A stretch of 64,000 nt of DNA. It comes from a bacterium (lineage in GTDB: Bacteria; Patescibacteriota; JABMPQ01; JBDRIV01). Positions 2,320 through 54,534 of the stretch are shown here, piece by piece (positions within the stretch are counted from its first letter, which is position 1; every line of letters begins with the position of its first letter). The translations under genes were made by a program, and so were the position numbers. The DNA is taken from assembly GCA_043815505.1 (NCBI GenBank), contig JBDRIV010000002.1, positions 11,484 to 75,483 on the forward strand, written 5' to 3'. The notes below the pieces were generated by a model, which saw only the letters and a list, made by a program, of their open reading frames with translations, searched no databases and had not been told where the DNA came from.

Positions 2320-3033
2320 CATGTTTTGTTACTATCCCATTTTTTGGGACGGTTAAACATTTCTGCTTAACTCTCTATGTCGCCATAGAGTTCGGACTAT
2401 ATCTTTCCAGCTCCAGTTTTTTGAAACTGGGGCGGGACTTGGCGTGTAGTCTCTGAGGATTGCAAATATCTTGATGGCTTTTTACGATTCATGGTTTCAA
2501 TTATTCCAGCGATTTTTCTAACACCTTTTGATGTTAGATGTTCCCCTCTTTTTATTATTACAACTACTTTTACAAATTTATTAAAATCTTCTGATTTTGC
2601 AGTTTGTAAGCAGTTCTTTTTAAAGAAAGGAATTATCACTTCTGTTAAATCTTTTAAAGATCTAATACAAAAGCGATATAAATCTTCTTTGTGATTATCA
2701 TGTCGGCGATTTATGTAAAGTTTTCCACACCCGAAGAATTTTTGAATTCTTTTTAGTGCTGGTAAACTTTTGGCGCCTTGTGTTATCACAAATTCTGGGA
2801 ATATTTGCCAACCAGAACTCGTTGTTGGATTCTTATTAATACTTACAGAGAAGGTTCCTTCTCCATCAGTGAATCCTACTATCCATCCTATTTGCCTTTC
2901 CTGCTGATTGTCTGCACCGAGTTGATTTTTACTTGGCATATTGTTCATAATCTATGGAACATTTATACCATAGTACAATCGGATTCTCCAGATTTTCCAG
3001 CATTTGGTCAAGTTTTACTATGGCAGCTTTCCT
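2320..3033 (-). mobile_element. 23S intron 3 (group-I-like) at the L1923-type site: CCUAUGGU | AGCGAAAUUCC; separated from intron 2 by a ~20-nt mini-exon (2300-2319)
   Basis: Exon CGCCGGCAGTAACTATAACTGTCCTATGGT ends at plus 3034. The intron ends in ...AACATG, the same as intron 2. The 3' regions of introns 1 and 3 share a ~70-nt block (plus 105-175 vs 2388-2462). Confidence 0.65.
2397..2948 (-). CDS. LAGLIDADG homing endonuclease, intron-encoded; C-terminus overlaps a family-A palindrome
   Basis: Motif IVGFTDGEGTFSVSI in a 183-aa protein. The C-terminal residues ...QFQKTGAGKI are encoded by the palindrome ccagctccagttttttgaaactggggcggg. Confidence 0.8.
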   Translation of the reverse strand: MNNMPSKNQLGADNQQERQIGWIVGFTDGEGTFSVSINKNPTTSSGWQIFPEFVITQGAKSLPALKRIQKFFGCGKLYINRRHDNHKEDLYRFCIRSLKDLTEVIIPFFKKNCLQTAKSEDFNKFVKVVVIIKRGEHLTSKGVRKIAGIIETMNRKKPSRYLQSSETTRQVPPQFQKTGAGKI

Positions 3034-4324: not shown

Positions 4325-4425
4325 CCCAGCCCCAGTTTTATTGAACTCGGAATTTTGGAATTCGATAATGCTCAAATGATTCATTGAACATTAAAGATAT
4401 TGAGTTCAGCAAAACTGGGGCTAGG
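4325..4425. repeat. Family-A palindromic element (long form, ~100 bp) inserted in 23S domain II just 5' of GACCCGAAACC
   Basis: cccagccccagtttt ... gaactcgg ... ttgagttcagc ... aaaactggggctagg, with nested inverted repeats. Confidence 0.75.
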
Positions 4426-4513: not shown

Positions 4514-4622
4514 CACCCCGCTCCAGTTTTATAGAACTCGGAATTTAAAAATTCGATTATGCTAATAAGCAATTTATTAAGCTTAAAGCATTTTGAGTTC
4601 TGCAAAACAGGGGCGGGGCTCC
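4514..4622. repeat. Family-A palindromic element (long form), second copy inside 23S
   Basis: caccccgctccagtttt ... gaactcgg ... ttgagttctgc ... aaaacaggggcggggct; internal core similar to the 4325-4425 copy. Confidence 0.75.
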
Positions 4623-5435: not shown

Positions 5436-6410
5436 TCTTTGGTATTAATGACTAAAAGTGGGGCTGGGGGGTTTGCCCATTCGGAGATCCTCGGATCAAG
5501 GGTTGTTTGACACCTCCCCGAGGCTTATCGCAGACTACCACGTCCTTCATCGGCTCTTTGTGTCTAGGCATTCACCATACACTCTTACCTCTTAGGTTGA
5601 TAAGATTAACTAGCTATATGTATTGATATTCAATTGTGTAAAGTCCTATCATTTGTTTTCACATTGTTGAAGTTTTTAAAACTGCAATTATCTGAAAGCA
5701 AATGGGCAACTAAAAAACCGCTCGTCGCGGCTCAATTTACACAAGGAATTATGCGTTCTAAAAGGCCGCCTAAATATGAGTAGTTAATGATCTTTTTTTC
5801 ATACGATTTTCCTTATATATTTAGATGTTTATCTGGTACTACGACTCTTTGTAGTACTGAGTTTATCGTATGAGTAGTGTACTTATAATTTAAAATGTTG
5901 TCAAGGAACAACTTTTACGCGGTGTGGACTTCCTGTGTAAAAGTGGAACATTTAGGCTTAGAATAAGAAAAAGATTAGTTTGACAATATGTTTATTTAAG
6001 CATATTCTTAATAGATTTGTGGTATTGTAATATTAGGAGGATTTGTACATTAACATTTTTGTTTGTTCTAAAAATGGGCGTAACTAATTGTGGAGGAATA
6101 AGGAAACGATAAAAAAGAAATGATATTTTCAAAAAAACAGAAAATACTACTTAGGAGAATGTTAATGAAAAAATCTACAGAATCAAATTCATTGAAGCCA
6201 GATATTATTTCAGGAGCAATTTGTAAACAACTTCCCCCAATCTGTTATGAAAGCGAAACCAAAAAGAGGGAAAGAGTAACCCAGTCTTTTAATATTCAAA
6301 GATGGTATAACGATCTTTTTGGTTTTCCCAAAGATGGTTCAATTTCAATTAGGCGGTAGAGATGTATTGTGGCTACAGTATCATGAAATTAAAACCAAAG
6401 GAGGTGAGTT

Positions 6411-6605
6411 TTGTCACAGGTCGCCGGAGTTTCAATATTTGATCTATCCATTCAACAATGTAAGGAGGAATTCTGTTCAGCATGTCTGCAATTGGCAGAG
6501 CAATCAGATATATTTCAAGCTGACATTTTAGCCAGGGCTTGCTCACTTTTCCATATTCAGGAGAAACCGAGGTGCGAAACTTGCCCCCGACAGCTATTTC
6601 TCTAA
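6411..6605 (+). CDS. Small Cys-rich hypothetical protein (64 aa, TTG start)
   Basis: SD aaggagg 8 nt upstream of TTG; Cys pairs CKEEFCSAC and CETCP; terminator-like hairpin aaaaatccc...gggattttt at ~6612-6652. Confidence 0.3.
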   Translation: MSQVAGVSIFDLSIQQCKEEFCSACLQLAEQSDIFQADILARACSLFHIQEKPRCETCPRQLFL

Positions 6606-6672
6606 CGAAATAAAAAATCCCAACTCGACTAAGCATTACGAGAAGGGATTTTTAAAAGATAACCACTACATA

Positions 6673-6882
6673 TTATTTTGATTCTTCGTCCAAACAATTA
6701 GGGCAGAAGTCTTGACCATCTTTGTTTTTCAGATGATCATTTATTGTGATTCGTTTACAACCATTACATCTTTTTCCCATACCGCGTATCAAAAGGGTAA
6801 GATTAATTGCACAACAATCATTATTCCATGGGTTGGCTCTAGATTGCAGTTTATCATTTGCAGTGGACTGGTTAAATGTCAT
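6673..6882 (-). CDS. Small HNH endonuclease-like protein (69 aa)
   Basis: CNGC ... NDHLKNKDG ... CPNC matches the HNH arrangement CxxC-DH-N-CxxC; lies in the rRNA spacer. Confidence 0.5.
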   Translation of the reverse strand: MTFNQSTANDKLQSRANPWNNDCCAINLTLLIRGMGKRCNGCKRITINDHLKNKDGQDFCPNCLDEESK

Positions 6883-6898
6883 TTTCTTTTCTCCAGGT

Positions 6899-7204
6899 TC
6901 AATAAGCTAATTTGGATCCTCTTTGTCTGCCAGTAGAGTATCCGACGTAATAATATGGGCTTTGGTTTTTCTTGGCTCGGGTTGAGCCGGGACCGTGTTG
7001 ATTGCCCTTTTTCCAATCCTTCAGGGCTTGTTCATATTCTTCTGGCGGGGCAAGTACGGGACATTTTTCACTAAGGTCTGGCTGGCCAGGAAATACATTG
7101 TCAACATGATTATTGTTTTTTCTTCCGCAATAACCGCATCTTGAATTATCGCGGCTGCCAAACATTCTTTCTCTTTCGTGTGTTGATAGTGGATCAAATA
7201 CCAT
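6899..7204 (-). CDS. Cys-containing hypothetical protein, possibly HNH-like (101 aa)
   Basis: CGYCGRKNNNHVDN...C motif pattern; weak. Confidence 0.3.
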   Translation of the reverse strand: MVFDPLSTHERERMFGSRDNSRCGYCGRKNNNHVDNVFPGQPDLSEKCPVLAPPEEYEQALKDWKKGNQHGPGSTRAKKNQSPYYYVGYSTGRQRGSKLAY

Positions 7205-7427
7205 TGTTCTTTTCTCCCAGGGTTTTATTGTAAAATGATCGGAGCGTGCTTAAGGTGCTAATATTATTTTCTAGTTTTAAGGTATCATAAAACATTTTAT
7301 GGGGGAAGTGATTTTAGTTATCCTACCAAAAAATCGCCCATTTGGCGATTACTTGTTTTTCGTTGTAAAAAATGGCATCTCGTGTGAGATGCCCGTGAAG
7401 TGAGGTGCAACTTGCAACTTTGCTCCC

Positions 7428-7571
7428 TTAATCTTTGCCGTAATAATTGCGATATGCATCTGCATCTGTGCCCCGAGGCCAACAGTTGAAGGATTTTTTC
7501 TTTCCCTTGTCAGGTAGAATAGATATTAGTACAACAACACCGACAAATCCTGCTAGCACCAAAAGTATCAT
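7428..7571 (-). CDS. Small membrane protein (47 aa); not in the ORF track
   Basis: SD ggaggg 6 nt upstream of ATG; hydrophobic MILLVLAGFVGVVVLISIL; terminator-like hairpin at ~7318-7350 on the minus strand. Confidence 0.3.
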   Translation of the reverse strand: MILLVLAGFVGVVVLISILPDKGKKKSFNCWPRGTDADAYRNYYGKD

Positions 7572-7789
7572 TTTTGTCCCTCCCATAAAAGAGTGCATAG
7601 CTTGATCTGATAAACCTCAATCAGATCCTAATTTATTAGTATCATAAATATTTTTTAAGTTAAAAAAGTATGATATTTTATTATACTTTCTATTAGCGAT
7701 TGTCTTGACAAAATAGTCATTAGGTAGTACAAAGAAGTGAGATAAATTGTCCTTGTAAAATGTATGCGAATCGCTACGAGAGGTGAATT

Positions 7790-8089
7790 ATGAAGAAGCT
7801 GTTTTCGTTCCTTTGGATTATCTGTTCAATAGTGGCAGTGTGGTTTGTTTGGGACTATTTCGGCTGGGTAGCCGGAGTAGTCGCTATTGTGGCGGTTCTA
7901 TTAATGAACAACATTTTGTTCGAAAGGAAAGAAAAAACTACGCCCAGGACAACAAGATTGACAAACGAAGACGATTATCCATCGTTTCCGTACGACGGAG
8001 GACCAGCAAGTTCTCACAACTCATCTACTTATGGTATGTATGATGGCGGTGATCAATCATCAGGACATCAAGATTACACAGCCGGTTGA
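7790..8089 (+). CDS. Small membrane protein with a low-complexity G/S/Y-rich tail
   Basis: N-terminal TM segments; candidate promoter TTGACA (7705-7710) - 17 nt - TACAAA; followed by a terminator. Confidence 0.45.
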   Translation: MKKLFSFLWIICSIVAVWFVWDYFGWVAGVVAIVAVLLMNNILFERKEKTTPRTTRLTNEDDYPSFPYDGGPASSHNSSTYGMYDGGDQSSGHQDYTAG

Positions 8090-8105
8090 ATAATTGATAT
8101 TTAGA

Positions 8106-8145
8106 CAAAACGGCCATCGGTTTTCCATCCGATGGCTTTTTTCTT
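8106..8145 (+). terminator. Rho-independent terminator
   Basis: ggccatcggttttccatccgatggcc hairpin followed by a T-run. Confidence 0.6.
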
Positions 8146-8443
8146 TCTGTAATTTTGGTGGACCGTAGGAGAGTCGAATCCGCCGGTCGGCAGACAGACC
8201 TTCTTTCAAAACAAATTTAAAATCTCTCTGGACCGCAGGGGGATCATCTACCCGCGACTACGTTTTGGGCGTGGCCAGCTTGCCCGCGGATGCGGGACGC
8301 AGCCAGGAGGAACTCACCTTTTAAACATTTTTCATGGACTCGAGGAGAATCTCACCTAGAGAGTGACCAGCCTTTGGGCGGGAACTCCTTTTTCTTTCTT
8401 TAAAATCTTATGGACCTGGCCGGATTCGAACCGGCTTTTATAA

Positions 8444-8776
8444 TTATTTTTCTAAATTTTCAACTTTTTCAAGGAATTTTTCCAACACTGTTTTTGCTAA
8501 CTCTCTATCTTTGCCGGCACTTGCTTCCATTTCTGCCCAATAACATTGATCTTGTAATTCAGGAGTTAAACTATCGTAGTCAATTTTTCCTGAACGCTCA
8601 AGAAGTTCTTTAATAGAAGCGTCAATTTTTTCAATATCTTCAGGCGAGAGATTGCTTGTTTCACTAAGACCATAATCTATTCTTCTTTGACGTGTCATTT
8701 CTCTTGCTTCTTCAGGAGTTGTAATTTTTCTTTCCAATTTTTCGGGATCTACTCCCATTTGTTCTGGTGATGTCAT
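8444..8776 (-). CDS. Acidic hypothetical protein (110 aa) located in the 16S-23S spacer
   Basis: ORF only; no clear SD. Confidence 0.3.
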   Translation of the reverse strand: MTSPEQMGVDPEKLERKITTPEEAREMTRQRRIDYGLSETSNLSPEDIEKIDASIKELLERSGKIDYDSLTPELQDQCYWAEMEASAGKDRELAKTVLEKFLEKVENLEK

Positions 8777-8929
8777 ATGTTGAATCTAAGTACTAAATCT
8801 TTTATTGACTAAGAGTCAGAATCGCTTACCCAGTCGTGCTGTGCGCGACTGTGGAAATCGCCTTATAAACATTTTAAACTCCTGGACTCAGAGCGAGAAT
8901 AAGAACTCCTTTTTAAAACATTTTGCCTC

Positions 8930-9003
8930 TGGACCCGGCCGGATTCGAACCGGCGGCCCCCTGCTTGCAAAGCAGGTGCTCTAGCCAACTGAGCTACGGG
9001 CCC
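8930..9003 (-). tRNA. tRNA-Ala(TGC)
   Basis: Reverse complement GGGCCCGTAGCTCAGTTGG...CTTTGCAAG...GGTTCGAATCC...CGGGTCCA has a G3:U70 pair and anticodon TGC. Confidence 0.9.
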
Positions 9004-9206
9004 AAAGGCAAAATGTTTTAAACCCCCTGGTCTTGCAAACAGTTTAATTTTCTATTGAAAATTAAACTGGGGGGTGCGTCTGCGGTTGAGCTACGAGCCC
9101 ATGGAAAAATGATTATAACTCCTGCAGTGTGACTTTGCTAAGGGCTGTTGGCAAATTGCAAATGGAAAACGTTAATTGCTATTAGCCACTCGCTATAAGC
9201 CAAATG

Positions 9207-9464
9207 CTACTGCAGTGTGGTGGAGCCAGGAAGAACACTGGACACACAACCACCGATCATTCTTTCCAACAAACCAAACATAAATAAAAATGAAAACATT
9301 ATTAGCAGTCCCCCAATTAATCTGATGGCGACTCTGGTGCCACCAAACATGCCAAGATATTTTTCTAACGTGGCGGACTGACCAACTAAGTTATAAATTT
9401 GTTCGCCCCATTTTATCATGGCGGCGCCAATTAGAATGCCAATAATTCCCCAAACTATTCTCAT
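9207..9464 (-). CDS. Small membrane protein (85 aa) between tRNA-Ile and tRNA-Ala; preceded directly by family-D element copy A
   Basis: Two to three hydrophobic segments; GAAGAG upstream of the ATG. Confidence 0.35.
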   Translation of the reverse strand: MRIVWGIIGILIGAAMIKWGEQIYNLVGQSATLEKYLGMFGGTRVAIRLIGGLLIMFSFLFMFGLLERMIGGCVSSVLPGSTTLQ

Positions 9465-9589
9465 GTCGTCGTAACAACTCTTCAGCTTTCGTCCCGCTTA
9501 GCGGGACTTCACCCTGCGAGTTGTTTCTCCTCTCAATTTAAACGCGTGCTCACTCCGCGTTGCGGGGTTGCACTCCTCGTTTAAATTGC
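9465..9589 (-). ncRNA. Family-D structured element, copy A (~125 nt)
   Basis: Minus-strand stem CAATTTAAACG/CGTTTAAATTG, then GAGAGGAGAAACAA and a 3' block CTGAAGAGTTGTTACGACG. The stem covaries in copies B and C. Confidence 0.45.
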
Positions 9590-9693
9590 AACTAATAATA
9601 CTTTATAAATTCCCCAGTGGGTGACCTGAAGATTTTCAGCCAGAGGCTGATCCGCCTTTGGCGGAGAACCTCGTCACTTAATACATCTCTCAG

Positions 9694-9767
9694 TGGGCGA
9701 TCGAGGATTTGAACCTCGGACCTCGTCATTATCAGTGACGCGCTCTAACCAACTGAGCTAATCGCCC
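9694..9767 (-). tRNA. tRNA-Ile(GAT)
   Basis: Reverse complement GGGCGATTAGCTCAGTTGGTTAGAGCGCGTCACTGATAATGACGAGGTCCGAGGTTCAAATCCTCGATCGCCCA. Confidence 0.9.
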
Positions 9768-9798
9768 ACTGAGAGATTTATCTTTTTATTATACATTA

Positions 9799-10026
9799 GG
9801 ATGATCACCCGTAGGGTGAGAATCTCGGACCTCGTCTCGTCCAAACAATACTTCAGTCTTCGCAATCCAACAAGTTGAATTGCTTCGACTTACGTATTGT
9901 TTCTCCTCTCCGATTAAAAACGTGCTCGTTCACTACGTTCACTGCGCACCATTTTTAATCGGTAACTGTTAAGTGACGCGCCTGCCTGCCGGCAGGCAGG
10001 CTCTAACCAACTGAGCAAACGTTGCC
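9799..10026 (-). pseudogene. tRNA-Ile-like paralog interrupted by a 19-nt GC hairpin in the D region and by family-D element copy B (9838-9962) in the anticodon loop
   Basis: 5' part GGCAACGTTTGCTCAGTTGGTTAGAGC[CTGCCTGCCGGCAGGCAGG]CGCGTCACTTAACAG... then the 125-nt element ... GACGAGGTCCGAG; T-arm region degenerate. Confidence 0.45.
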
Positions 10027-10146
10027 TAGGGCTAATAGCAAATAGCAAATGGCACTAAAATATAATTGCAATTAGCTATAAGCCATTCGCCATTCGCCAA
10101 CTAGTTTACCATTTACAAAGCCACTTTTCAAGAAAAAATTATGACA

Positions 10147-10205
10147 AACCCCGCCCCACCCCACTCCAGTTCTAATTAAAAACTGGGGCTGGGTGGAGCG
10201 GGGTT
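10147..10205. repeat. Family-A palindrome (short form) between the 16S 3' end and the tRNA-Ile paralog
   Basis: aaccccgccccaccccactccagttctaattaaaaactggggctgggtggagcggggtt. Confidence 0.7.
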
Positions 10206-10445
10206 ATCTTTTGACATTTAAATAGTGATAGGAGCAGATTGACATGTCATGAATGAATTCATGAAAGTCGACCTTCGGGTATGCTTGCTTATTAAACAAG
10301 CGGATATTCCCTAGAAAGGAGGTGATCCATCCACAGCTTCCGCTACGGATGCCTTGTTACGACTTTGCCCCTCTCGCTGGGCCCACCTTCGGTCCTAGAA
10401 CTAGGAACTTCGGGTGTTCCCAACTCGCTTGACATGACGGGCGGT

Positions 10446-11371
10446 ATCGAGATCCAAATTGGTCTCACACCACTGGGCAAACGGTTTTACCGTACCCTAG
10501 CGGTTCCACGAATATTATTCAGCTTGCGAATTTTATTTCGCAAAGAAACAATTTTTTTAAATCCAACATCGGTTAGATGCTGTTTGGATTTAATTAACAT
10601 AACTGCTTCACAAAATAATTCATAAACCAAACGCTTTTTAGCTCTCAACTTGTAACGGTTGAAGAAGGGAATTATTTTTTCACTCAAATCATTTATATTG
10701 CTCACTTTATATTTGACATGCGGATGCCATTTATAACGAGCATAATTTAAGCGATAGATATTTCCGCAACCAAAAGCATTTTTAATTTGGTTTAGGATTT
10801 CTTCATCATCGGCGCGGAGTTCTATTTCAAACTCTGCCCTAACTTCTTGTCGGCGTTTCAAGGTTTGATGTTTGCTGATACTAATACAGAAACATCCTTC
10901 CCCGTCAACGAAACCGACAATATATTCGGGATGAAGATTATTATTTTCGTGGTTCGGTCCTTTTCCCGCTCCAGTTTGTTTTAAACTGGGGCTGGATACT
11001 ACGACCTCTGCTGACTTCTTGTATTGCATCGTCATAATATTGCTATTATGTCTTAATTCTCGTGGGGTTTGCACCCCGAGGTTATTATACCTCAAAACAA
11101 GAATACAATACAAGATCTCCCTGGGTCACCTTATAAACCGTTCTTTCTCATCTCGGCTTTCCTGCACTTTAGTTTCCAAATTTACAGAAGACTTCCCTAC
11201 GTACACGAAAGGTCGTCGTTGAAACTAAAGCCTAAACGAAAGCTCAAGCTAAGAAATGCTACTTTTACCCTTGTTCCCAAACCTCACGATTTGGGACTGT
11301 AATTTCGCTTCCCAGTTTCTGCAAACTGGGGTGTGATTTTAACACACTGGTTTATAAAATTGCCAGGCGCA
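10446..11371 (-). mobile_element. 16S intron (group-I-like) inserted within CUUGUACAC / ACCGCCCGUCA (E. coli ~1395-1400)
   Basis: Exon matches stop at plus 11372 (gtgtacaag) and resume at plus 10445 (gacatgacgggcggt). Contains a LAGLIDADG ORF. The exact splice junction is ambiguous by +/-3 nt. Confidence 0.6.
10487..11113 (-). CDS. LAGLIDADG homing endonuclease, encoded in the 16S intron
   Basis: Motif IVGFVDGEGCFCISI in a 208-aa protein. Family-A palindrome cccgctccagtttgttttaaactggggctgg lies in-frame at 10958-10994 and encodes KQTGAGKG. Confidence 0.8.
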   Translation of the reverse strand: MYCILVLRYNNLGVQTPRELRHNSNIMTMQYKKSAEVVVSSPSLKQTGAGKGPNHENNNLHPEYIVGFVDGEGCFCISISKHQTLKRRQEVRAEFEIELRADDEEILNQIKNAFGCGNIYRLNYARYKWHPHVKYKVSNINDLSEKIIPFFNRYKLRAKKRLVYELFCEAVMLIKSKQHLTDVGFKKIVSLRNKIRKLNNIRGTARVR

Positions 11372-11520
11372 AGTGTACAAGACCCGAGAACGTATTCACC
11401 GCGCTATAGCTGACGCGCGGTTACTAGCGATTCCAACTTCATGAGGGCGAATTGCAGCCCTCAATCCGAACTGAGACTGGGTTTGATGAGATTAGCTTCA
11501 TCTTGCGATTTCGCAACTCA

Positions 11521-28107: not shown

Positions 28108-28404
28108 TTACTTACTTAAAAATGGATTGGCGGAAGAAATGTTTTCAAAACTGGTTTCAGTTTTTGATTCCGCTATTTTTGATTGACTATTTTTTACATC
28201 TTCAGAAATTACTATAGAAGTTTGTCCCATGTAAGTAGTTGCTCCATTTGTAGCATTGCCAGTTAACCAATATTCAAAAGCACCAATAATTAAAATGATC
28301 AGCAAAGCTGCTAAAAAAGCAAAGAAAGCAGCTTGTCGCCAAATTGTTTGAGATAAGTTACCAATAAATTTTGGCATTTTAAATTCCATATTTTTGTTAG
28401 CCAT
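28108..28404 (-). CDS. Membrane-anchored hypothetical protein; last gene of the pil operon
   Basis: One TM segment; ORF overlaps pilO. Confidence 0.4.
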   Translation of the reverse strand: MANKNMEFKMPKFIGNLSQTIWRQAAFFAFLAALLIILIIGAFEYWLTGNATNGATTYMGQTSIVISEDVKNSQSKIAESKTETSFENISSANPFLSK

Positions 28405-28978
28405 CGGTTTTCTCCAAAGGATTTAAGGTAAAGAATTTTACTATCAAAGTAGCTGAAGTTGTTGCGCCCTCAGAATCAGATAAAATATTTAGAGAATCAA
28501 CATCATAGGCGAGAGCAGATTTCTTAAGCAGTAATAAGTATTTTTGTATACCAGCATATGAACCAGTTAAACTTATTGAGGCCACAAGATAAGATTCACT
28601 GGCATAAAGATCATCGCCTTTATCAGTAGCAGCATTTTTAACTAGGCTACTTTCTTCACCAATAGATATTTTTTGTTCTAAGTTATTGTTGTTGGCGTTT
28701 TCTTCCAAAGAAACAATTATATCCAGTGGTTGATCTTGCAATATAAACATTTGTTTTATTTCATCCAATTGAGCCACAATTTCATCATTTTGAATTTCCA
28801 AAGAAGTCAGTTTTTCTTGAGCATTGGTTAGACTAGCCAGTTCAGTTTCTTTGGCCTCAATAGAATTAATATTTTCATTCAAACCTTGAAGCGAAGGATG
28901 AATATAGAAAATAACCGAAACTAAAATACCCAAAAAAACTATGATGGGTAAAATATAATTTTTAATCTGATTATTCAT
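28397..28978 (-). CDS. pilO: Type IV pilus assembly protein PilO-like
   Basis: N-terminal TM plus coiled coil; position after pilN. Confidence 0.6.
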   Translation of the reverse strand: MNNQIKNYILPIIVFLGILVSVIFYIHPSLQGLNENINSIEAKETELASLTNAQEKLTSLEIQNDEIVAQLDEIKQMFILQDQPLDIIVSLEENANNNNLEQKISIGEESSLVKNAATDKGDDLYASESYLVASISLTGSYAGIQKYLLLLKKSALAYDVDSLNILSDSEGATTSATLIVKFFTLNPLEKTDG

Positions 28979-29531
28979 TGTTGTCTGTAAAAGTGAAAGT
29001 CATGGTAAAATCAATATCTTCTTTGCTGGTTAAATTGGATAAGGGTGATTCTACATCACTAAAATTATCTGAATTCTCTATGTTATCGCTAAACGAGACA
29101 AAATCATCTCTAGTGGTGGCGTGACCACTTAAATTAATTGTGTGTGTCCATTTTTTTATAGCAATTTGTTTCCAGATTATGGTATCTGGTGTAAGTTGAG
29201 TTAGTTCATTTAAAAGCGTGTGCCAGGAAGTTTGCTTATTATAAATTCCGTTTAAGCGTTTTCCGATTCTATTTAATTCTTCCACATTAGTTTCCAGTTC
29301 ATCATTTTTTTGTTGTTCAATAGCCATTTTCGCCTCAGCAATATTATTATCAAGATCGCTCAGACGATTATTGTATGTTCCAGAAACAAAAAATAAAGCA
29401 CCAGCAATCAAAATCAACACCAGAACATCATACAAACTCACAATCATTAAGAAGTTTGATAATCTTTGTGCCTTGAGGCTACTTTTCTCGTTTTTTGGAA
29501 GTAGATTTATTTTTATCATTTTCGTAATCAA
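28971..29531 (-). CDS. pilN: Type IV pilus assembly protein PilN-like; true start probably MIKINLLP
   Basis: INLLP motif at the N-terminus, then TM and coiled coil. Confidence 0.65.
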   Translation of the reverse strand: MITKMIKINLLPKNEKSSLKAQRLSNFLMIVSLYDVLVLILIAGALFFVSGTYNNRLSDLDNNIAEAKMAIEQQKNDELETNVEELNRIGKRLNGIYNKQTSWHTLLNELTQLTPDTIIWKQIAIKKWTHTINLSGHATTRDDFVSFSDNIENSDNFSDVESPLSNLTSKEDIDFTMTFTFTDNNE

Positions 29532-30585
29532 AAGGATCCAGGGCTCTTAAAGCTAGACCCATTACTTTTATGAAACTTAAAACATCAACAGTTTTAATTT
29601 TTTTAGCAGCTTTCTTACTTGCTTTTCCGAGTATTTGCCAAGGATCAGCCACATCAACTTGAAAAGGAATTTGCAAAGCAATATAAGGAGCAAAACCATG
29701 TAGGTTAGAGCTACCACCACATAGGATAACTTTTTTTATTCCCGAAATATGTCTTTCCCTTTCCAGATATTCAATAATATTGTGAATTTCATCTGAGAAA
29801 GTTTTAAATAGTGGTTCCAAAACTGACAAAAGTTTCTTATCTTTATTGTCTTCAGAAGAACTATAAGCTTTCATTTTTAGTTCCTCCGCTTCATTCATGC
29901 TGACACCCATGCCATCGGCAATTATTTTTGTAAACTCAACACCGGAAACCTTTGAGGCTGAAGTGAAAACAATGTTACCAGCATTAACAGCCGTAAAGAG
30001 AGTGCGTCCCTTCCCAATATCAGCTATTAATAATTTTTCTTCAGAATCCTTGAGCACAATAGCGCGGGTGGTAGCAGCTTCTTCTAAATCAATAACGGTC
30101 GGGATTAATTTCAAATCGGCTAATAAATCATAATATGATCTAACATGAGTCATGGGACTGGCGCTCACAAATGTGGTTAAAGAATCTTTTCTTTTTTTAA
30201 TGACCTGATAATCAAAAACAACTTCTTCGTCCCAAGGAGTAAGGGATGATAATTTCCAGCGCACCGCTTCCTCAATTTCATCATCGGCCATTATGGGAAG
30301 CTTCAATGTTTTGTAAAAAGTTTTTTCGTGCGGTAGCATTAAGGATACATAAGGAGTTTTAATGCTCTTTGGTTTAGCATTTTTGAGGGCATTTTTAATG
30401 GCTGTGCTTAAAATATCAGCTTTAATAATATCGCCTCCTACAACCACTCCCTCATCCAGAGAAGCAGAAGCATAACCATGCAAAGAATATTTTTTACCAC
30501 TTTTGTTAAACTGAAAAACTTTGACGGAAGAGTCAAATATTTTTAACCCAAAGCCTTTTTTTGCTAGATTTAAGGGATTGGCCAT
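29479..30585 (-). CDS. pilM: Type IV pilus assembly protein PilM (actin-like ATPase fold)
   Basis: PilM family architecture; operon context. Confidence 0.75.
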   Translation of the reverse strand: MANPLNLAKKGFGLKIFDSSVKVFQFNKSGKKYSLHGYASASLDEGVVVGGDIIKADILSTAIKNALKNAKPKSIKTPYVSLMLPHEKTFYKTLKLPIMADDEIEEAVRWKLSSLTPWDEEVVFDYQVIKKRKDSLTTFVSASPMTHVRSYYDLLADLKLIPTVIDLEEAATTRAIVLKDSEEKLLIADIGKGRTLFTAVNAGNIVFTSASKVSGVEFTKIIADGMGVSMNEAEELKMKAYSSSEDNKDKKLLSVLEPLFKTFSDEIHNIIEYLERERHISGIKKVILCGGSSNLHGFAPYIALQIPFQVDVADPWQILGKASKKAAKKIKTVDVLSFIKVMGLALRALDPFDYENDKNKSTSKKREK

Positions 30586-30586
30586 T

Positions 30587-31798
30587 TTAGAAACTTGAAG
30601 TTATTGAATAAATTGGTTGTACAATTGCTAGCGCTAAGAAAGCAACAGCTACCCCCATAACAATCATAAGGAGAGGTTCAATAATTGAGGACATATTTTC
30701 TGTGGAGTCGGCTACTTCCTCTTCATAGAAACCAGCTAACTGCAAAAGAATAGTATCAAGTTCTCCTGTTTCTTCACCGATAGAAATCATTTGTGTGACC
30801 ATGGGTGGGAAGAGATGGGGTTCTTTTTCAAAAATTGAAACTAAACTTACACCTTTAGTAATTTTTTTACTAGCCTCTTCCACCGCTCTTTTGTAATGAA
30901 CATTGCCTAGTACCGAAGACACAATTTCTAGGGTTGTGACCATAGAAATGCCACTTTTTAAAAGTGAAGCGGTGGTTCTGGCAAAACGGGCTAAATTCAC
31001 TTTTTTAGCTAGAGTGCCAATTAAAGGAAATATTATTAATACTCGGTGCCAAATTGGTTTGCCGAAAGGAGTTTTAATAAACATAAAGAATAAAACTACT
31101 AGTCCCACCAATCCGCCAATTACCAACACTAAATTATTGCTGGTAAAGTCACTGGCGGCCAATAAAAACCTGGTAGCAAATGGTAACTCGGTATCCATGC
31201 CGGCAAAAATATCTGTTAATTGTGGTAAGACCATCGTCATCATAACAATGGCTACACCTATCATGGCTAAAACTACAATAGAAGGATAGGTCATGGCGCC
31301 TCTAATTTTGGAAATCAAATGATGGTCTTTTTCCATTTGGGTTGATAGTTGTTTCAATACTTCTTCTAAACGTCCACTGAATTCCCCTGCCTGCACCATA
31401 CTGGTGAACATAGTTGGAAATACATTTTTATGCACAGCCATCGCTTCAGCCAAAGACCGACCTTTTTGAATATCCTTGTTGATAGAATTTAAAATTTTTG
31501 CAAAATATTTAGAATTAGTTTGTTTGGCTAAAATACCAATCGCCTTAGATATAGAGACACCCGCTTTTAACATCATGGCCAGGTGATTGGTAAAAAGAAT
31601 TTTTTCTTTTACTCCTACCGAGCCCCAGGAAGTAAGCTTCTTTAACATACCTTCCTTTCCTCTTTCTTTTTCCCAGTGCGTCAAAAGGAGGCCATCTTGT
31701 TTTAAGGTTTTGGCTAATTGTTGTTCGCTAATTGCGTCCATCTCTCCTTTTTTGGTTTTACCTTTTTCGTCGCGAGCAATATATTTAAATTTGGCCAT
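30587..31798 (-). CDS. pilC: Type IV pilus platform protein PilC (GspF family)
   Basis: Duplicated GspF domains; three TM segments. Confidence 0.85.
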   Translation of the reverse strand: MAKFKYIARDEKGKTKKGEMDAISEQQLAKTLKQDGLLLTHWEKERGKEGMLKKLTSWGSVGVKEKILFTNHLAMMLKAGVSISKAIGILAKQTNSKYFAKILNSINKDIQKGRSLAEAMAVHKNVFPTMFTSMVQAGEFSGRLEEVLKQLSTQMEKDHHLISKIRGAMTYPSIVVLAMIGVAIVMMTMVLPQLTDIFAGMDTELPFATRFLLAASDFTSNNLVLVIGGLVGLVVLFFMFIKTPFGKPIWHRVLIIFPLIGTLAKKVNLARFARTTASLLKSGISMVTTLEIVSSVLGNVHYKRAVEEASKKITKGVSLVSIFEKEPHLFPPMVTQMISIGEETGELDTILLQLAGFYEEEVADSTENMSSIIEPLLMIVMGVAVAFLALAIVQPIYSITSSF

Positions 31799-54191: not shown

Positions 54192-54286
<95 letters not shown>

Positions 54287-54534
54287 AATTTGTAAACAAA
54301 TACTCGGCATAGTCTCGAACAAAAAACTGATACTGAGCGTCTGCCAGGGCTTTTGTTTAAAGCCCGTCTAAAGCTGCACACGCTCGCTTTAGACCCGCTC
54401 AGCCACCTCTCCATAAAACTAACTTCTCTTATTGTAGCGGTAAAATTAGATTATTTCAACCGTTATTACAGTTGACTTAAGGCATATTGTGTATTATATT
54501 CTTAAGATTCGTTCATTTTAAAAAGGAGAACAAA

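Follow-up and report, generated by a model that had tools for sequence, protein, structure and literature searches.

In fungal mitochondria, GIY-YIG reading frames are found with a duplicated gene end, and in tRNA genes used as attachment (att) sites the block from the T arm to the 3' end is the classical identity block. In the tRNA cluster of phage T4, the homing endonuclease SegB spreads with a replacement copy of the disrupted gene segment (PMC2330249). Palindromic repeats occur in Volvox organelles (PMC2670323), and group I introns occur in tRNAs of Patescibacteria. The paper on these introns covers nothing else (PMC13011429) and is the nearest that we found, the literature searched holding no description in Patescibacteria of the arrangement reported here. 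We analysed a stretch of 64,000 nucleotides from a Patescibacteria contig (the window), in which tRNA genes are accompanied by broken copies of themselves on the same strand.

Broken copies of four tRNA genes

Seven tRNAs were called in the window by ARAGORN and Rfam. Same-strand partial copies lie within 500 nt of those for Ala, Ile, Lys and Ser, and antisense controls returned no match. When each tRNA was aligned locally with the whole window, the best matches outside tRNA genes adjoined the parent gene on its own strand, and background matches elsewhere scored at most 30; gap-tolerant alignment extended the similarity of the copies into the leader and the trailer. These results bear out the first-pass annotation in its claim that tRNA genes carry adjoining partial pseudo-copies, and alignment with the adjacent genes shows the fragments to be similar to them (for example 24/25 identical for Ala and 60/71 for Lys). 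The Ala locus comprises the following features.

8930..9003, minus strand: functional tRNA-Ala(UGC) (ARAGORN; Rfam, 72.8 bits)
9023..9119, minus strand: outer psi-Ala 5' part (51/63 identical, gap-tolerant alignment)
8861..8910, minus strand: outer psi-Ala 3' part, unit e (fold z = -9.6)
8444..8776, minus strand: ORF110, a conserved protein-coding gene that separates tRNA-Ala from unit h
8411..8435, minus strand: unit h, a 24/25 copy of tRNA-Ala positions 49-73 (score 45)
8156..8388, minus strand: tandem units b (8388-8334), c (8318-8229) and d (8200-8156)

The functional tRNA-Ala stands on a continuous helix of 26 bp made of its acceptor stem, leader (9004-9022) and trailer (8912-8929). The outer 5' part upstream, an addition to the copies listed in the first pass, has its own leader (9119-9101) followed by tRNA positions 1-47 (9100-9023), with an AT-rich hairpin of 30 nt (9040-9069) in the anticodon arm. 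Unit e, on the other side, holds a degenerate T arm and the acceptor 3' strand TGAGTCC-A (8910-8883), then its own trailer (8882-8861). The unit base-pairs with the leader and the 5' acceptor strand of the outer copy (7/7, G3-U70 and a compensatory pair among them).

Farther downstream, unit h is followed by trailer-like sequence at 8410-8395 (33/37 identical in the gap-tolerant alignment). In each of units b, c and d, a hairpin resembling a T arm and bearing GC-rich inserts precedes (G/A)GTCCA and an A-rich trailer; the 3' end of unit d is GGTCCACCA, and a terminator hairpin comes next at 8136-8113. Units h to d lie between a conserved gene and the terminator, in the 3' UTR of that gene. Two 3'-fragment copies of tRNA-Ala had been proposed: the one at 8411-8435 stands, while the supposed duplication of 8290-8420 against 8845-8935 resolves into the tandem units of T arm, GTCCA and A-rich trailer. 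Since there are five or six Ala 3' units against one 5' unit, more than one process is acting. A reading of units h to d as a two-piece tmRNA was not supported, ARAGORN calling no tmRNA in the window and the sole Rfam tmRNA match in the scanned interval 5500-11400 being 17 nt at unit h (E = 0.13).

At the Lys and Ser loci we found the following.

40957..41029, plus strand: functional tRNA-Lys(CUU) (ARAGORN; Rfam, 68.7 bits)
40841..40941, plus strand: outer psi-Lys 5' part (60/71 identical; local match 40858-40889)
41045..41128, plus strand: outer psi-Lys 3' part (48/56 identical; local match 41082-41104; fold z = -6.0)
54196..54286, minus strand: functional tRNA-Ser(GCU) (ARAGORN; Rfam)
54329..54417, minus strand: psi-Ser 5' copy (54/61 identical; local match 54357-54412)

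The leader (40942-40956) and trailer (41030-41044) of tRNA-Lys form a helix continuous with its acceptor stem. The outer 5' part again has its own leader (40841-40857) ahead of tRNA positions 1-47, with an AT-rich hairpin (40892-40922) in place of the anticodon-stem 5' strand; the outer 3' part comprises a T arm, the 3' strand of the acceptor stem (as far as 41104) and its own trailer, and a 33-nt CCTGGCC...GGGCAGG palindrome (41054-41086) sits in the T loop. The 5' half upstream and the 3' half downstream with a GC-rich T-loop insert, as described in the first pass, are therefore both present. The sampled relatives have no tRNA-Lys at the syntenic place (aaRS-like gene beside tRNA-Lys, ~70% identity), which precludes an orthologous comparison of this locus. 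For tRNA-Ser, the expected 5'-half copy (about 54366-54412) lies 43 nt upstream of the gene; its acceptor 5' strand and D arm are near-identical to tRNA-Ser, a diverged stem-loop region follows, and alignment of tRNA-Ser with the whole window found no 3' copy.

The Ala and Lys loci share a nested arrangement, which reads outer leader, tRNA positions 1-47, a complete tRNA with its own leader-trailer helix, positions 49-76 and outer trailer. The outer pieces are two contiguous halves of one older gene, split by the complete gene at position 47/48, and each half has its own diverged leader or trailer. The predicted folds stack an outer helix, the outer acceptor stem, the inner helix and the cloverleaf (z = -9.6 for Ala and -6.0 for Lys). 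Neither outer gene, reconstructed with the inserts removed, was called as a tRNA by ARAGORN.

The Ile locus has copies on both sides of the gene.

9694..9767, minus strand: functional tRNA-Ile(GAT) (ARAGORN; Rfam, 75.3 bits)
9791..10019, minus strand: psi-Ile 5' copy, about positions 7-60, upstream of tRNA-Ile (64/75 identical)
9600..9676, minus strand: psi-Ile 3' copy, downstream of tRNA-Ile (42/53 identical)
9470..9600, minus strand: second copy of a two-hairpin plus GAGAGGAGA element, directly upstream of ORF85 (9464-9207)

The leader of tRNA-Ile (9768-9781) pairs with its trailer (9681-9693) and lengthens the acceptor stem. The 5' copy, with local matches at 10000-10019 and 9820-9836, carries three inserts. 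The first, following the D stem, is the palindrome CCTGCCTGCCGGCAGGCAGG (9980-10001); the anticodon loop holds the second, a two-hairpin element about 130 nt long (~9838-9968), and the T loop the third, the hairpin TCACCCTACGGGTGA (9805-9819). This 5' copy had been taken for a full-length interrupted paralog; interrupted it is, but it covers only about positions 7-60 and its 3' end is missing. A separate 3' copy (9676-9600), absent from the earlier list, lies just downstream of the real gene and reaches from the 3' strand of the anticodon stem, or from the T arm, to the 3' strand of the acceptor stem and the trailer, with a twin hairpin (9636-9665; 51.6 bits, E = 7e-10) in its T loop. The two copies of the two-hairpin plus GAGAGGAGA element show compensatory differences in both hairpins, as read by eye. 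Unequal crossover between the neighbouring tRNAs was rejected, as it predicts psi-Ala 5' and then psi-Ile 3' between Ile and Ala, whereas the actual order is reversed.

Recurrence in relatives, palindromes and endonucleases

We surveyed 120 related metagenome loci having a 16S 3' end, together with the window, a sample of 200 tRNAs. Sense-strand fragments accompany 31 of the 200, and antisense controls gave none; the same architecture recurs in many assemblies of relatives. The 41 fragments divide into 16 upstream 5', 19 downstream 3', 4 downstream 5' and 2 upstream 3' pieces, so that 5' pieces lie upstream and 3' pieces downstream in 35 cases against 6 (p = 5.8e-6). When the 16S-23S spacer of the window was compared with the 120 loci by BLAST, only tRNA bodies and hairpin modules matched, indicating that no close relative of the spacer is among them.

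Some of the cases are young. With the inserts removed, ARAGORN recognises a tRNA in the joined outer halves of L081 (Arg CCG), L037 (Ile GAT) and L119 (Phe GAA), in each case with the anticodon of the intact inner gene. L119 also contains a perfect duplication of 42 nt. Comparison of outer with inner acceptor stems gave 6 compensatory double changes in 4 loci, with 62 of 63 outer pairs intact and the outer acceptor pairing preserved in 9/9 nested cases; in L081 the anticodon and T stems show such compensatory differences as well (read by eye). Such differences fit diverged copies that were once functional. The insertion points are cloverleaf loops, namely the D loop (L081), the anticodon loop (L037, L076) and the variable loop (window). 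Insert positions and relic extents vary between loci.

The window has a GC content of 37% and contains 26 perfect GC-rich hairpins, compared with 3-8 in shuffled sequences, in agreement with the claim that the copies carry small GC-rich hairpin insertions; five of the 26 lie between 9491 and 10001. The window has 4 occurrences of the motif TCNNNC-N3/4-GNNNGA, with 0 in shuffles, and the loci have 43 where about 2 are expected. The GC-rich inserts belong to lineage-wide palindrome families. One is a twin hairpin, two 15-nt hairpins of the form TCSGCC-N3-GGCSGA with flanks TT...RA, found at 22 distinct sites in CPR loci and IMG/VR contigs, including 3' UTRs; it is 98% paired, shows covariation and has conserved TT/RA flanks, which match TTC|RAA of the T loop. 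Unit b of the Ala array matches it weakly. Its occurrence also in 3' UTRs and IMG/VR contigs means that it behaves like a REP-type repeat; we find many copies with shared sequence and hairpin potential, non-coding and in many genomes, as in REP/MITE-like elements, and we know of no associated transposase. A second family consists of CCTGCC...GGCAGG palindromes. The identical palindrome CCTGCCTGCCGGCAGG is present in the psi-Ile of the window and 5 nt upstream of a psi-Met fragment in L036, and related ones occur in L076 and at the insert ends of L081.

The window's 16S and 23S genes contain four LAGLIDADG reading frames and one GIY-YIG reading frame (Pfam). In three relatives (L015, L060 and L090), small GIY-YIG genes separate the real tRNA from its 3' relic, and tRNAs followed by a GIY-YIG gene have fragments in 4/6 cases versus 27/194 for the others (p = 0.006). 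No endonuclease gene was found beside the window's tRNA-Ala, -Ile, -Lys and -Ser or inside the contiguous nested cases L037, L076, L081 and L119.

Proposed origin of the relics

Our preferred reading, to which we give slightly less than an even chance, is that tRNA modules were repeatedly replaced or inserted by duplication, probably through repair of DNA breaks, and that the partial copies are the relics of these events. The module would be a tRNA with its complementary leader and trailer, and a complete module would repeatedly land within a resident copy of that tRNA gene or right next to it. Function would then be carried by the intact copy, while the interrupted one would persist as an upstream 5' piece and a downstream 3' piece, in the manner of Russian dolls. 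Breaks in tRNA genes may be mended by duplicative insertion or capture of a replacement copy, with junctions in cloverleaf loops and perhaps ~0-5 nt lost, and the survivors would be only those products that keep one intact essential tRNA. Homing endonucleases, which are numerous in these rRNA and tRNA operons, seem the most likely agents to have made the breaks and brought in foreign replacement copies, presumably also at the window's own loci. We propose that the relics, being probably without function and hence dispensable, accumulate small GC-rich palindromes of the lineage-wide families. Besides the unequal numbers of Ala 3' and 5' units, three observations speak against this reading. At L115 and L119 the relic blocks are often near-identical to the live gene despite several insertions, which would need frequent gene conversion, a very recent origin or selection; the intact outer acceptor pairing of all nine nested cases is expected too if the outer fold is functional; and the endonuclease genes are missing from the four window tRNAs and the four contiguous nested loci just named.

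Plain replication slippage or unequal recombination, needing neither nuclease nor foreign DNA and leaving pieces that decay and are colonised by palindromes, is an unlikely alternative. A tandem duplication ending inside a tRNA gene always keeps one intact gene, and the only fragments it can leave are an upstream 5' piece or a downstream 3' one, exactly the orientation rule observed. L119 shows a perfect tandem unit of 49 nt made of the leader plus positions 1-24, the 3' units of tRNA-Ala form a tandem array, and a possible CAGG(G/A)G microhomology was read by eye at the Ala 5' junction. For both Ala and Lys, however, slippage requires two independent duplications with a shared breakpoint at 47/48 and symmetric outer ends, and it explains neither the several compensatory pairs between outer and inner copies nor the GIY-YIG association.

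A more far-reaching and, in our judgement, rather unlikely conjecture is that homing tRNA-plus-stem cassettes replace resident genes and leave the Russian-doll relics, and that a hairpin-specific machinery, possibly small GIY-YIG nucleases, also spreads the twin hairpins and the CCTGCC...GGCAGG palindromes between cells and phages; in a variant, the outer halves would be functional two-piece tRNA-like RNAs. The narrower proposal, that tRNA and stem form a mobile hairpin-shaped cassette homing by itself into loops of the resident homologous gene, with one putative hairpin-handling machinery moving both it and the small palindromes, we consider quite improbable. We found no candidate transposase or recombinase, the sequences of the terminal helices vary from cassette to cassette, and an identical cassette was not seen at two sites. 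The base of the leader-trailer helix nevertheless marks the exact limits of the inserts, which enter cloverleaf loops, hairpins are nested within hairpins in L037, and the insert ends of L081 (CCTGCCCGCC...GGCAGG) match small palindromes at the psi-Ile D arm in L076 and the window. Long leader-trailer helices are common in the clade even without fragments (p = 0.15) and flank many relic-free tRNAs; they are thus not signs of a mobile element, which weakens their interpretation as its terminal inverted repeats.

The outer tRNA-like scaffolds and 3' units might also be functional RNA structures: processing handles for RNase P/Z or RNase III, punctuation releasing the tRNA and embedded ORF mRNAs, 3'-end protectors, or two-piece tRNA-like molecules formed after excision of the inner tRNA. 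The paired outer acceptor stems with their compensatory changes, the very stable folds, the G3-U70 kept in outer psi-Ala and the inserts that mostly occupy loops and leave stems intact are in keeping with such a role, as are the covariation and conserved flanks of the twin hairpins and the placement of units h to d in a 3' UTR before a terminator. Yet divergence before nesting can account for the compensatory differences; even with the inserts removed, the window's outer Ala and Lys copies are not recognised as tRNAs, the relics vary from locus to locus in extent and in the place of their inserts, most of the 200 tRNAs lack fragments, and the sampled relatives lack a syntenic tRNA-Lys. We judge a function of this kind distinctly improbable.

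It is very unlikely that the fragments are att-site scars of integrase-type elements (phages or islands), later decayed or imprecisely excised. Integration is a known general source of tRNA gene fragments (bioRxiv 10.1101/2022.07.05.498093), and unit h, psi-Lys 3' and psi-Ile 3' are 3' copies in direct orientation. Only unit h and the 3' end of tRNA-Ala, which form a 24/25 direct repeat 519 nt apart around ORF110, look like an attL/attR pair. The homologues of ORF110 in relatives are located elsewhere, in ordinary chromosomal contexts and not beside tRNAs, and we rejected ORF110 as cargo of a tRNA-targeting element. Against att scars, upstream 5' fragments (16/41 clade-wide, and four in the window) are as common as downstream 3' ones, and spacings are 13-519 nt with no element between. 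Pfam detected no integrase, recombinase or transposase domain in the 46 window reading frames scanned (spacer, rRNA-insert and chromosomal), consistent with the first-pass remark that no integrase is evident. A scan of IMG/VR viral contigs with the Ala 3' block alone returned only phage tmRNA genes and no attP. That annotation had offered repeated integration or excision, or a mechanism copying tRNA halves; the copying of halves holds clade-wide, whereas the 5' pieces, the short spacings and the lack of domains count against integrase-type events. Chance similarity or an assembly artefact is hardly credible, as nothing was found in its support, 41 sense matches face none in the antisense controls, hairpins are far fewer in shuffles and the same architecture appears in many independent assemblies.

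Relics of module replacement by break repair, as we prefer to read them, would imply that bacterial tRNA gene fragments are not always integrase scars. In a clade of ultra-small bacteria, whose genomes are otherwise known for streamlining, essential single-copy tRNA genes would have been repeatedly overwritten in place, with the old copy left around the new. This would suggest a way in which tRNA genes are replaced and exchanged horizontally in Patescibacteria, and it would tie the turnover of these genes to the heavy homing-endonuclease load of CPR rRNA operons. In practice, relics of this sort can confuse both the annotation of tRNAs and the search for integration sites. The analysis also uncovers a conserved twin-hairpin repeat common to these bacteria and IMG/VR viral contigs.

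Comparison with known systems

Duplication of att sites by tyrosine integrases likewise leaves a same-strand partial copy near a complete tRNA, and unit h spans the T stem to the 3' end. In contrast to att duplication, 5' pieces occur here upstream as often as 3' pieces downstream, tens to hundreds of nucleotides away and without an integrase, and the two together make up one older gene, whose adjoining halves enclose a complete one.

Like the group I intron tRNAs of Patescibacteria and the multi-intron or split tRNAs of archaea, the copies are interrupted in D, anticodon, variable or T loops, and young outer copies become normal tRNAs after removal of the insert. However, the main insert here is another complete tRNA of the same identity, and the outer copies of the window are too decayed to be spliced into tRNAs. 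The inserts are hairpins of 15-130 nt or a whole tRNA; a group I intron or known RNA family was rejected for them, with no Intron_gpI match in the spacer (Rfam, 5500-11400, E <= 10).

The palindromes resemble REP/BIME elements, Rickettsia palindromic elements, yeast mitochondrial GC clusters and Volvox organelle repeats in being short GC-rich hairpins of an AT-rich genome, present in many copies in transcribed intergenic regions and RNA-gene relics and nested in one another. They differ from these in their sequence, TCSGCC-N3-GGCSGA, usually twin and with TT/RA flanks, in their preference for T-loop and D-loop positions of tRNA relics and in their presence in IMG/VR contigs.

Free-standing homing endonucleases that travel with a replacement gene segment differ in that no endonuclease reading frame is left at the window's four tRNAs and that a whole tRNA, not a gene end, is supplied. 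The likeness to them lies in the GIY-YIG genes of L015, L060 and L090, placed between the intact tRNA and the displaced piece, and in the rRNA operon of the window, which is full of endonuclease genes.

Insertions in the rRNA region

The window comes from a member of the Patescibacteria (CPR); the nearest relatives of its aaRS-like protein, at ~70% identity, are labelled Komeilibacteria or Patescibacteria. The tRNA-relic finding (partial tRNA copies around a live tRNA of the same identity) is located on the minus strand of the rRNA region, which is organized as follows.

12771-11296 and 3' end 10445-10328 (-): 16S gene, split by an 850-nt intron (10446-11295) with a LAGLIDADG ORF
11113-10490 (-): LAGLIDADG ORF of the 16S intron
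10957-11055: Rfam group-II D1-D4 match in the 16S intron
9464-9207 (-): ORF85, small membrane-like ORF
8776-8444 (-): ORF110, conserved protein gene with homologues of 54-60% identity
7790-8089 (+): opposite-strand ORF in the spacer
5598-783 (-): 23S gene, with ~1.9 kb of insertions
5444-5175 (-): GIY-YIG ORF in 23S
2948-2400 and 2090-1590 (-): LAGLIDADG ORFs in 23S
627-178 (-): fourth LAGLIDADG ORF, in the second intron-like copy beyond the 23S 3' end

The rRNA genes of the window are heavily invaded, with four LAGLIDADG ORFs and one GIY-YIG ORF within or beside them. Sub-threshold matches to group I introns occur in the 23S gene at 2373-2581 and 1563-1679, and one intron-like segment is present twice, the copy past the 23S 3' end (103-765) resembling 2389-3015. 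Long GC-rich hairpins or repeats of a single family (CCCCGCnCCAGTTTT...AACTGGnGnGGGG) are found at 10146-10207, 4325-4372, 4516-4563 and 10965-10985, these sites being just past the 16S 3' end, in 23S insertions and in the 16S intron. The 16S and 23S genes lie 4.7 kb apart (5599-10327), with tRNA-Ile, tRNA-Ala, a terminator hairpin (8113-8136) and ORFs between them. Since this gap holds ORF110, the small ORF, the opposite-strand ORF and the terminator hairpin, the two genes are probably not co-transcribed.

Nested partial copies of tRNA genes

When each of the seven tRNAs was compared with the whole window by Smith-Waterman alignment, the top non-tRNA matches adjoined the parent gene on the same strand. 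The matched blocks are 80-90% identical, and gap-tolerant alignment shows the similarity carrying on into the leaders and trailers, the sequences directly 5' and 3' of the tRNA. The fragment list of the first-pass annotation is essentially right. The Ile copy, described there as a full-length paralog, is real but covers only about positions 7-60, and the supposed second duplication of Ala consists of repeated units in a tandem series, T-arm plus GTCCA plus A-rich trailer (units e, h, b, c and d, downstream of the live gene). To that list we add an Ile 3' copy at 9676-9600, directly downstream of the real tRNA-Ile, and an Ala 5' copy at 9119-9023, upstream of tRNA-Ala.

For both Ala and Lys, the upstream piece comprises an older leader and tRNA positions 1-47, the anticodon arm carrying an AT-rich hairpin, and the downstream piece comprises positions 49-76 and an older trailer. 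Exactly between the two sits the live tRNA, flanked by a leader and a trailer of its own, and pairing of this inner leader and trailer lengthens the acceptor stem into a 22-26 bp helix. RNA folding of the whole regions gives a Russian doll, in which an outer leader-trailer helix is followed inwards by the outer acceptor stem, the long inner helix and the cloverleaf (fold z-scores of -6.0 for Lys and -9.6 for Ala). Ile has the same nested layout, its two relics overlapping or ambiguous in extent, and Ser has a 5' relic alone. With their inserts removed, the outer Ala and Lys copies of the window are too decayed for ARAGORN to call them as tRNAs. Long helices under the acceptor stem, formed by complementary leader and trailer, are present in many tRNAs of the clade, for example tRNA-Met of L121 and tRNA-Phe of L019 and L022 (L-numbers denote loci of relatives, metagenome or IMG/VR contigs) and tRNA-Ala, -Ile and -Lys of the window, with duplex energies reaching -35 kcal/mol; they occur also without relics and resemble rRNA processing stems.

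Scanning metagenomes with the lineage-specific 3' end of 16S gave 120 loci of relatives, most of which have tRNA arrays downstream of 16S. Within 450 nt on either side of 200 tRNAs (these loci and the window) we detected 41 sense-strand fragments, at 31 of the tRNAs, and no antisense fragment. Sixteen are 5' parts located upstream and 19 are 3' parts located downstream, with six exceptions (Fisher p = 5.8e-6), mostly parts of near-full copies or truncated neighbours. Such a rule of orientation is the mark of duplications in which one copy always stays intact. Young examples of the nested layout occur at several loci.

L081: D-loop insert in tRNA-Arg
L037 and L076: anticodon-loop insert in tRNA-Ile
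L119: tRNA-Phe interrupted between positions 24 and 29, perfect 42-nt duplication

Once the inserts are removed, the outer halves of L081, L037 and L119 are called as tRNAs by ARAGORN, with the anticodon of the inner gene. Across nine nested cases, 62 of 63 positions in the outer acceptor strands are paired, and six double, compensatory changes separate the outer from the inner acceptor stems; in L081 the anticodon and T stems, read by eye, also differ compensatorily. Such differences are expected of two tRNAs that functioned and diverged independently before one became nested in the other, although selection on the outer fold would yield the same picture.

Families of GC-rich palindromes

Perfect GC-rich hairpins number 26 in the 37%-GC window versus 3-8 in shuffles, and five are clustered at 9491-10001. 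The hairpin inserts are members of lineage-wide families. The single hairpin TCNNNC-N3/4-GNNNGA (15-16 nt) occurs four times in the window versus none in ten shuffles; the relatives' loci have 43 copies versus about 2 expected, mostly within tRNA arrays. The twin hairpin, TCSGCC-N3-GGCSGA twice side by side, is a conserved module, and a covariance model of five copies matches the T loop of the 3' part of psi-Ile, the outer Ile copy of the window (9636-9665), and, weakly, unit b, as well as L115 and L060 relics, in their T and D loops. The module is also found in 3' UTRs ahead of terminators (L059 and L074), in Patescibacteria contigs between genes, and in about 20 viral contigs of IMG/VR (loci L133-L150); it matches no Rfam family. 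Over 51 distinct rows, pairing holds in 98% of cells and covariation falls chiefly at the third base pair (TC[C/A/G]GCC-N3-GGC[G/T/C]GA), the search pattern partly imposing the sequence conservation and leaving the pairing of free positions unconstrained. The 22 distinct sites are preceded by TT and followed by RA, matching the TTC/RAA of tRNA T loops.

CCTGCC...GGCAGG palindromes form a second family. They are located after the D stem of psi-Ile in both the window and L076, in the T loop of psi-Lys in the window, at both ends of the tRNA-bearing insert in L081 and, as an identical 16-mer, 5 nt upstream of a psi-Met fragment in L036. In addition, the window has two copies of a longer element.

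9470-9600 and 9838-9968: ~125-nt two-hairpin element (long hairpin, GAGAGGAGAAACAA, second hairpin)

The copies show compensatory changes in both hairpins. ORF85 has one of them as its 5' leader, and the second lies in the psi-Ile anticodon loop; neither an Rfam match nor a copy among the 120 related loci was found.

Origin of the nested copies

We favour a model in which a complete module, at times of foreign origin, inserted into a resident gene, because the internal breakpoint is shared, the ends are symmetric, and outer and inner copies differ by compensatory changes. Two independent slippage events, each making one flanking piece, explain these three features less well. Insertion of a tRNA module would occur during repair of a DNA break, as we infer from junctions that lie in cloverleaf loops with ~0-5 nt lost, and products lacking a working tRNA would be removed by selection. 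The breaks were probably triggered by homing endonucleases, the case being weakest for the window's own loci, where no endonuclease ORF lies beside the four relic-bearing tRNAs. In L015, L060 and L090, a GIY-YIG ORF of ~82 aa (Pfam PF01541, from a scan of two of the three ORFs) separates the live tRNA from the 3' relic; the two relics there overlap by ~35 nt, and the same hairpin replaces the anticodon arm in both. Fragments accompany 4 of the 6 tRNAs followed by a GIY-YIG ORF versus 27 of the 194 others (p = 0.006). L129 (866-1987) has a small GIY-YIG ORF between smpB and the tmRNA gene, a further instance of this family beside a tRNA-like gene.

The relics would then be a safe site for REP-like palindromes, whose insertion into a live tRNA would be lethal. 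Relic blocks are nearly identical to the live gene despite the many inserts gained, which could reflect gene conversion or constraint, and outer folds so well kept may have a function. The window also encodes type IV pilus components at 28397-31798 and 45200-45682 (PilM, PilN, a T2SS-F-like protein and a prepilin). CPR bacteria typically have type IV pili, which serve in attachment and DNA uptake and could supply foreign tRNA modules.

Fragments of tRNA genes are classically explained by integrated elements, which leave duplications at their ends (bioRxiv 10.1101/2022.07.05.498093), and integration had been one of the initial readings of these loci; it is at odds with pieces of 5' origin, with distances this short, with halves that are contiguous and with the lack of any integrase, recombinase or transposase by Pfam in the 46 window reading frames scanned. 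The sole att-like pair, tRNA-Ala and unit h (8411-8435, minus strand; 24/25 positions, 519 nt apart), encloses ORF110, a conserved gene located elsewhere in relatives. A viral scan with the Ala 3' block of unit h retrieved phage tmRNA genes only. The exact 25-mer of this unit, GCCGGTTCGAATCCGGCCAGGTCCA, occurs in IMG/VR viral contigs (L157-L177) outside the tRNAs called by a tRNA-only scan, and lies inside a tmRNA gene, circularly permuted in three cases, in the four loci checked with the ARAGORN tmRNA search; this reflects the mimicry of tRNA-Ala by tmRNA.

In a full-text literature search, neither nested tRNA genes nor tRNA relics nor such palindromes turned up for Patescibacteria, the closest paper being one on group I introns in Patescibacteria tRNAs (PMC13011429). 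The known kinds touched are tRNA gene fragments, endonuclease-linked duplication of gene pieces and palindromic repeats, and the nested copies are a variant of these.
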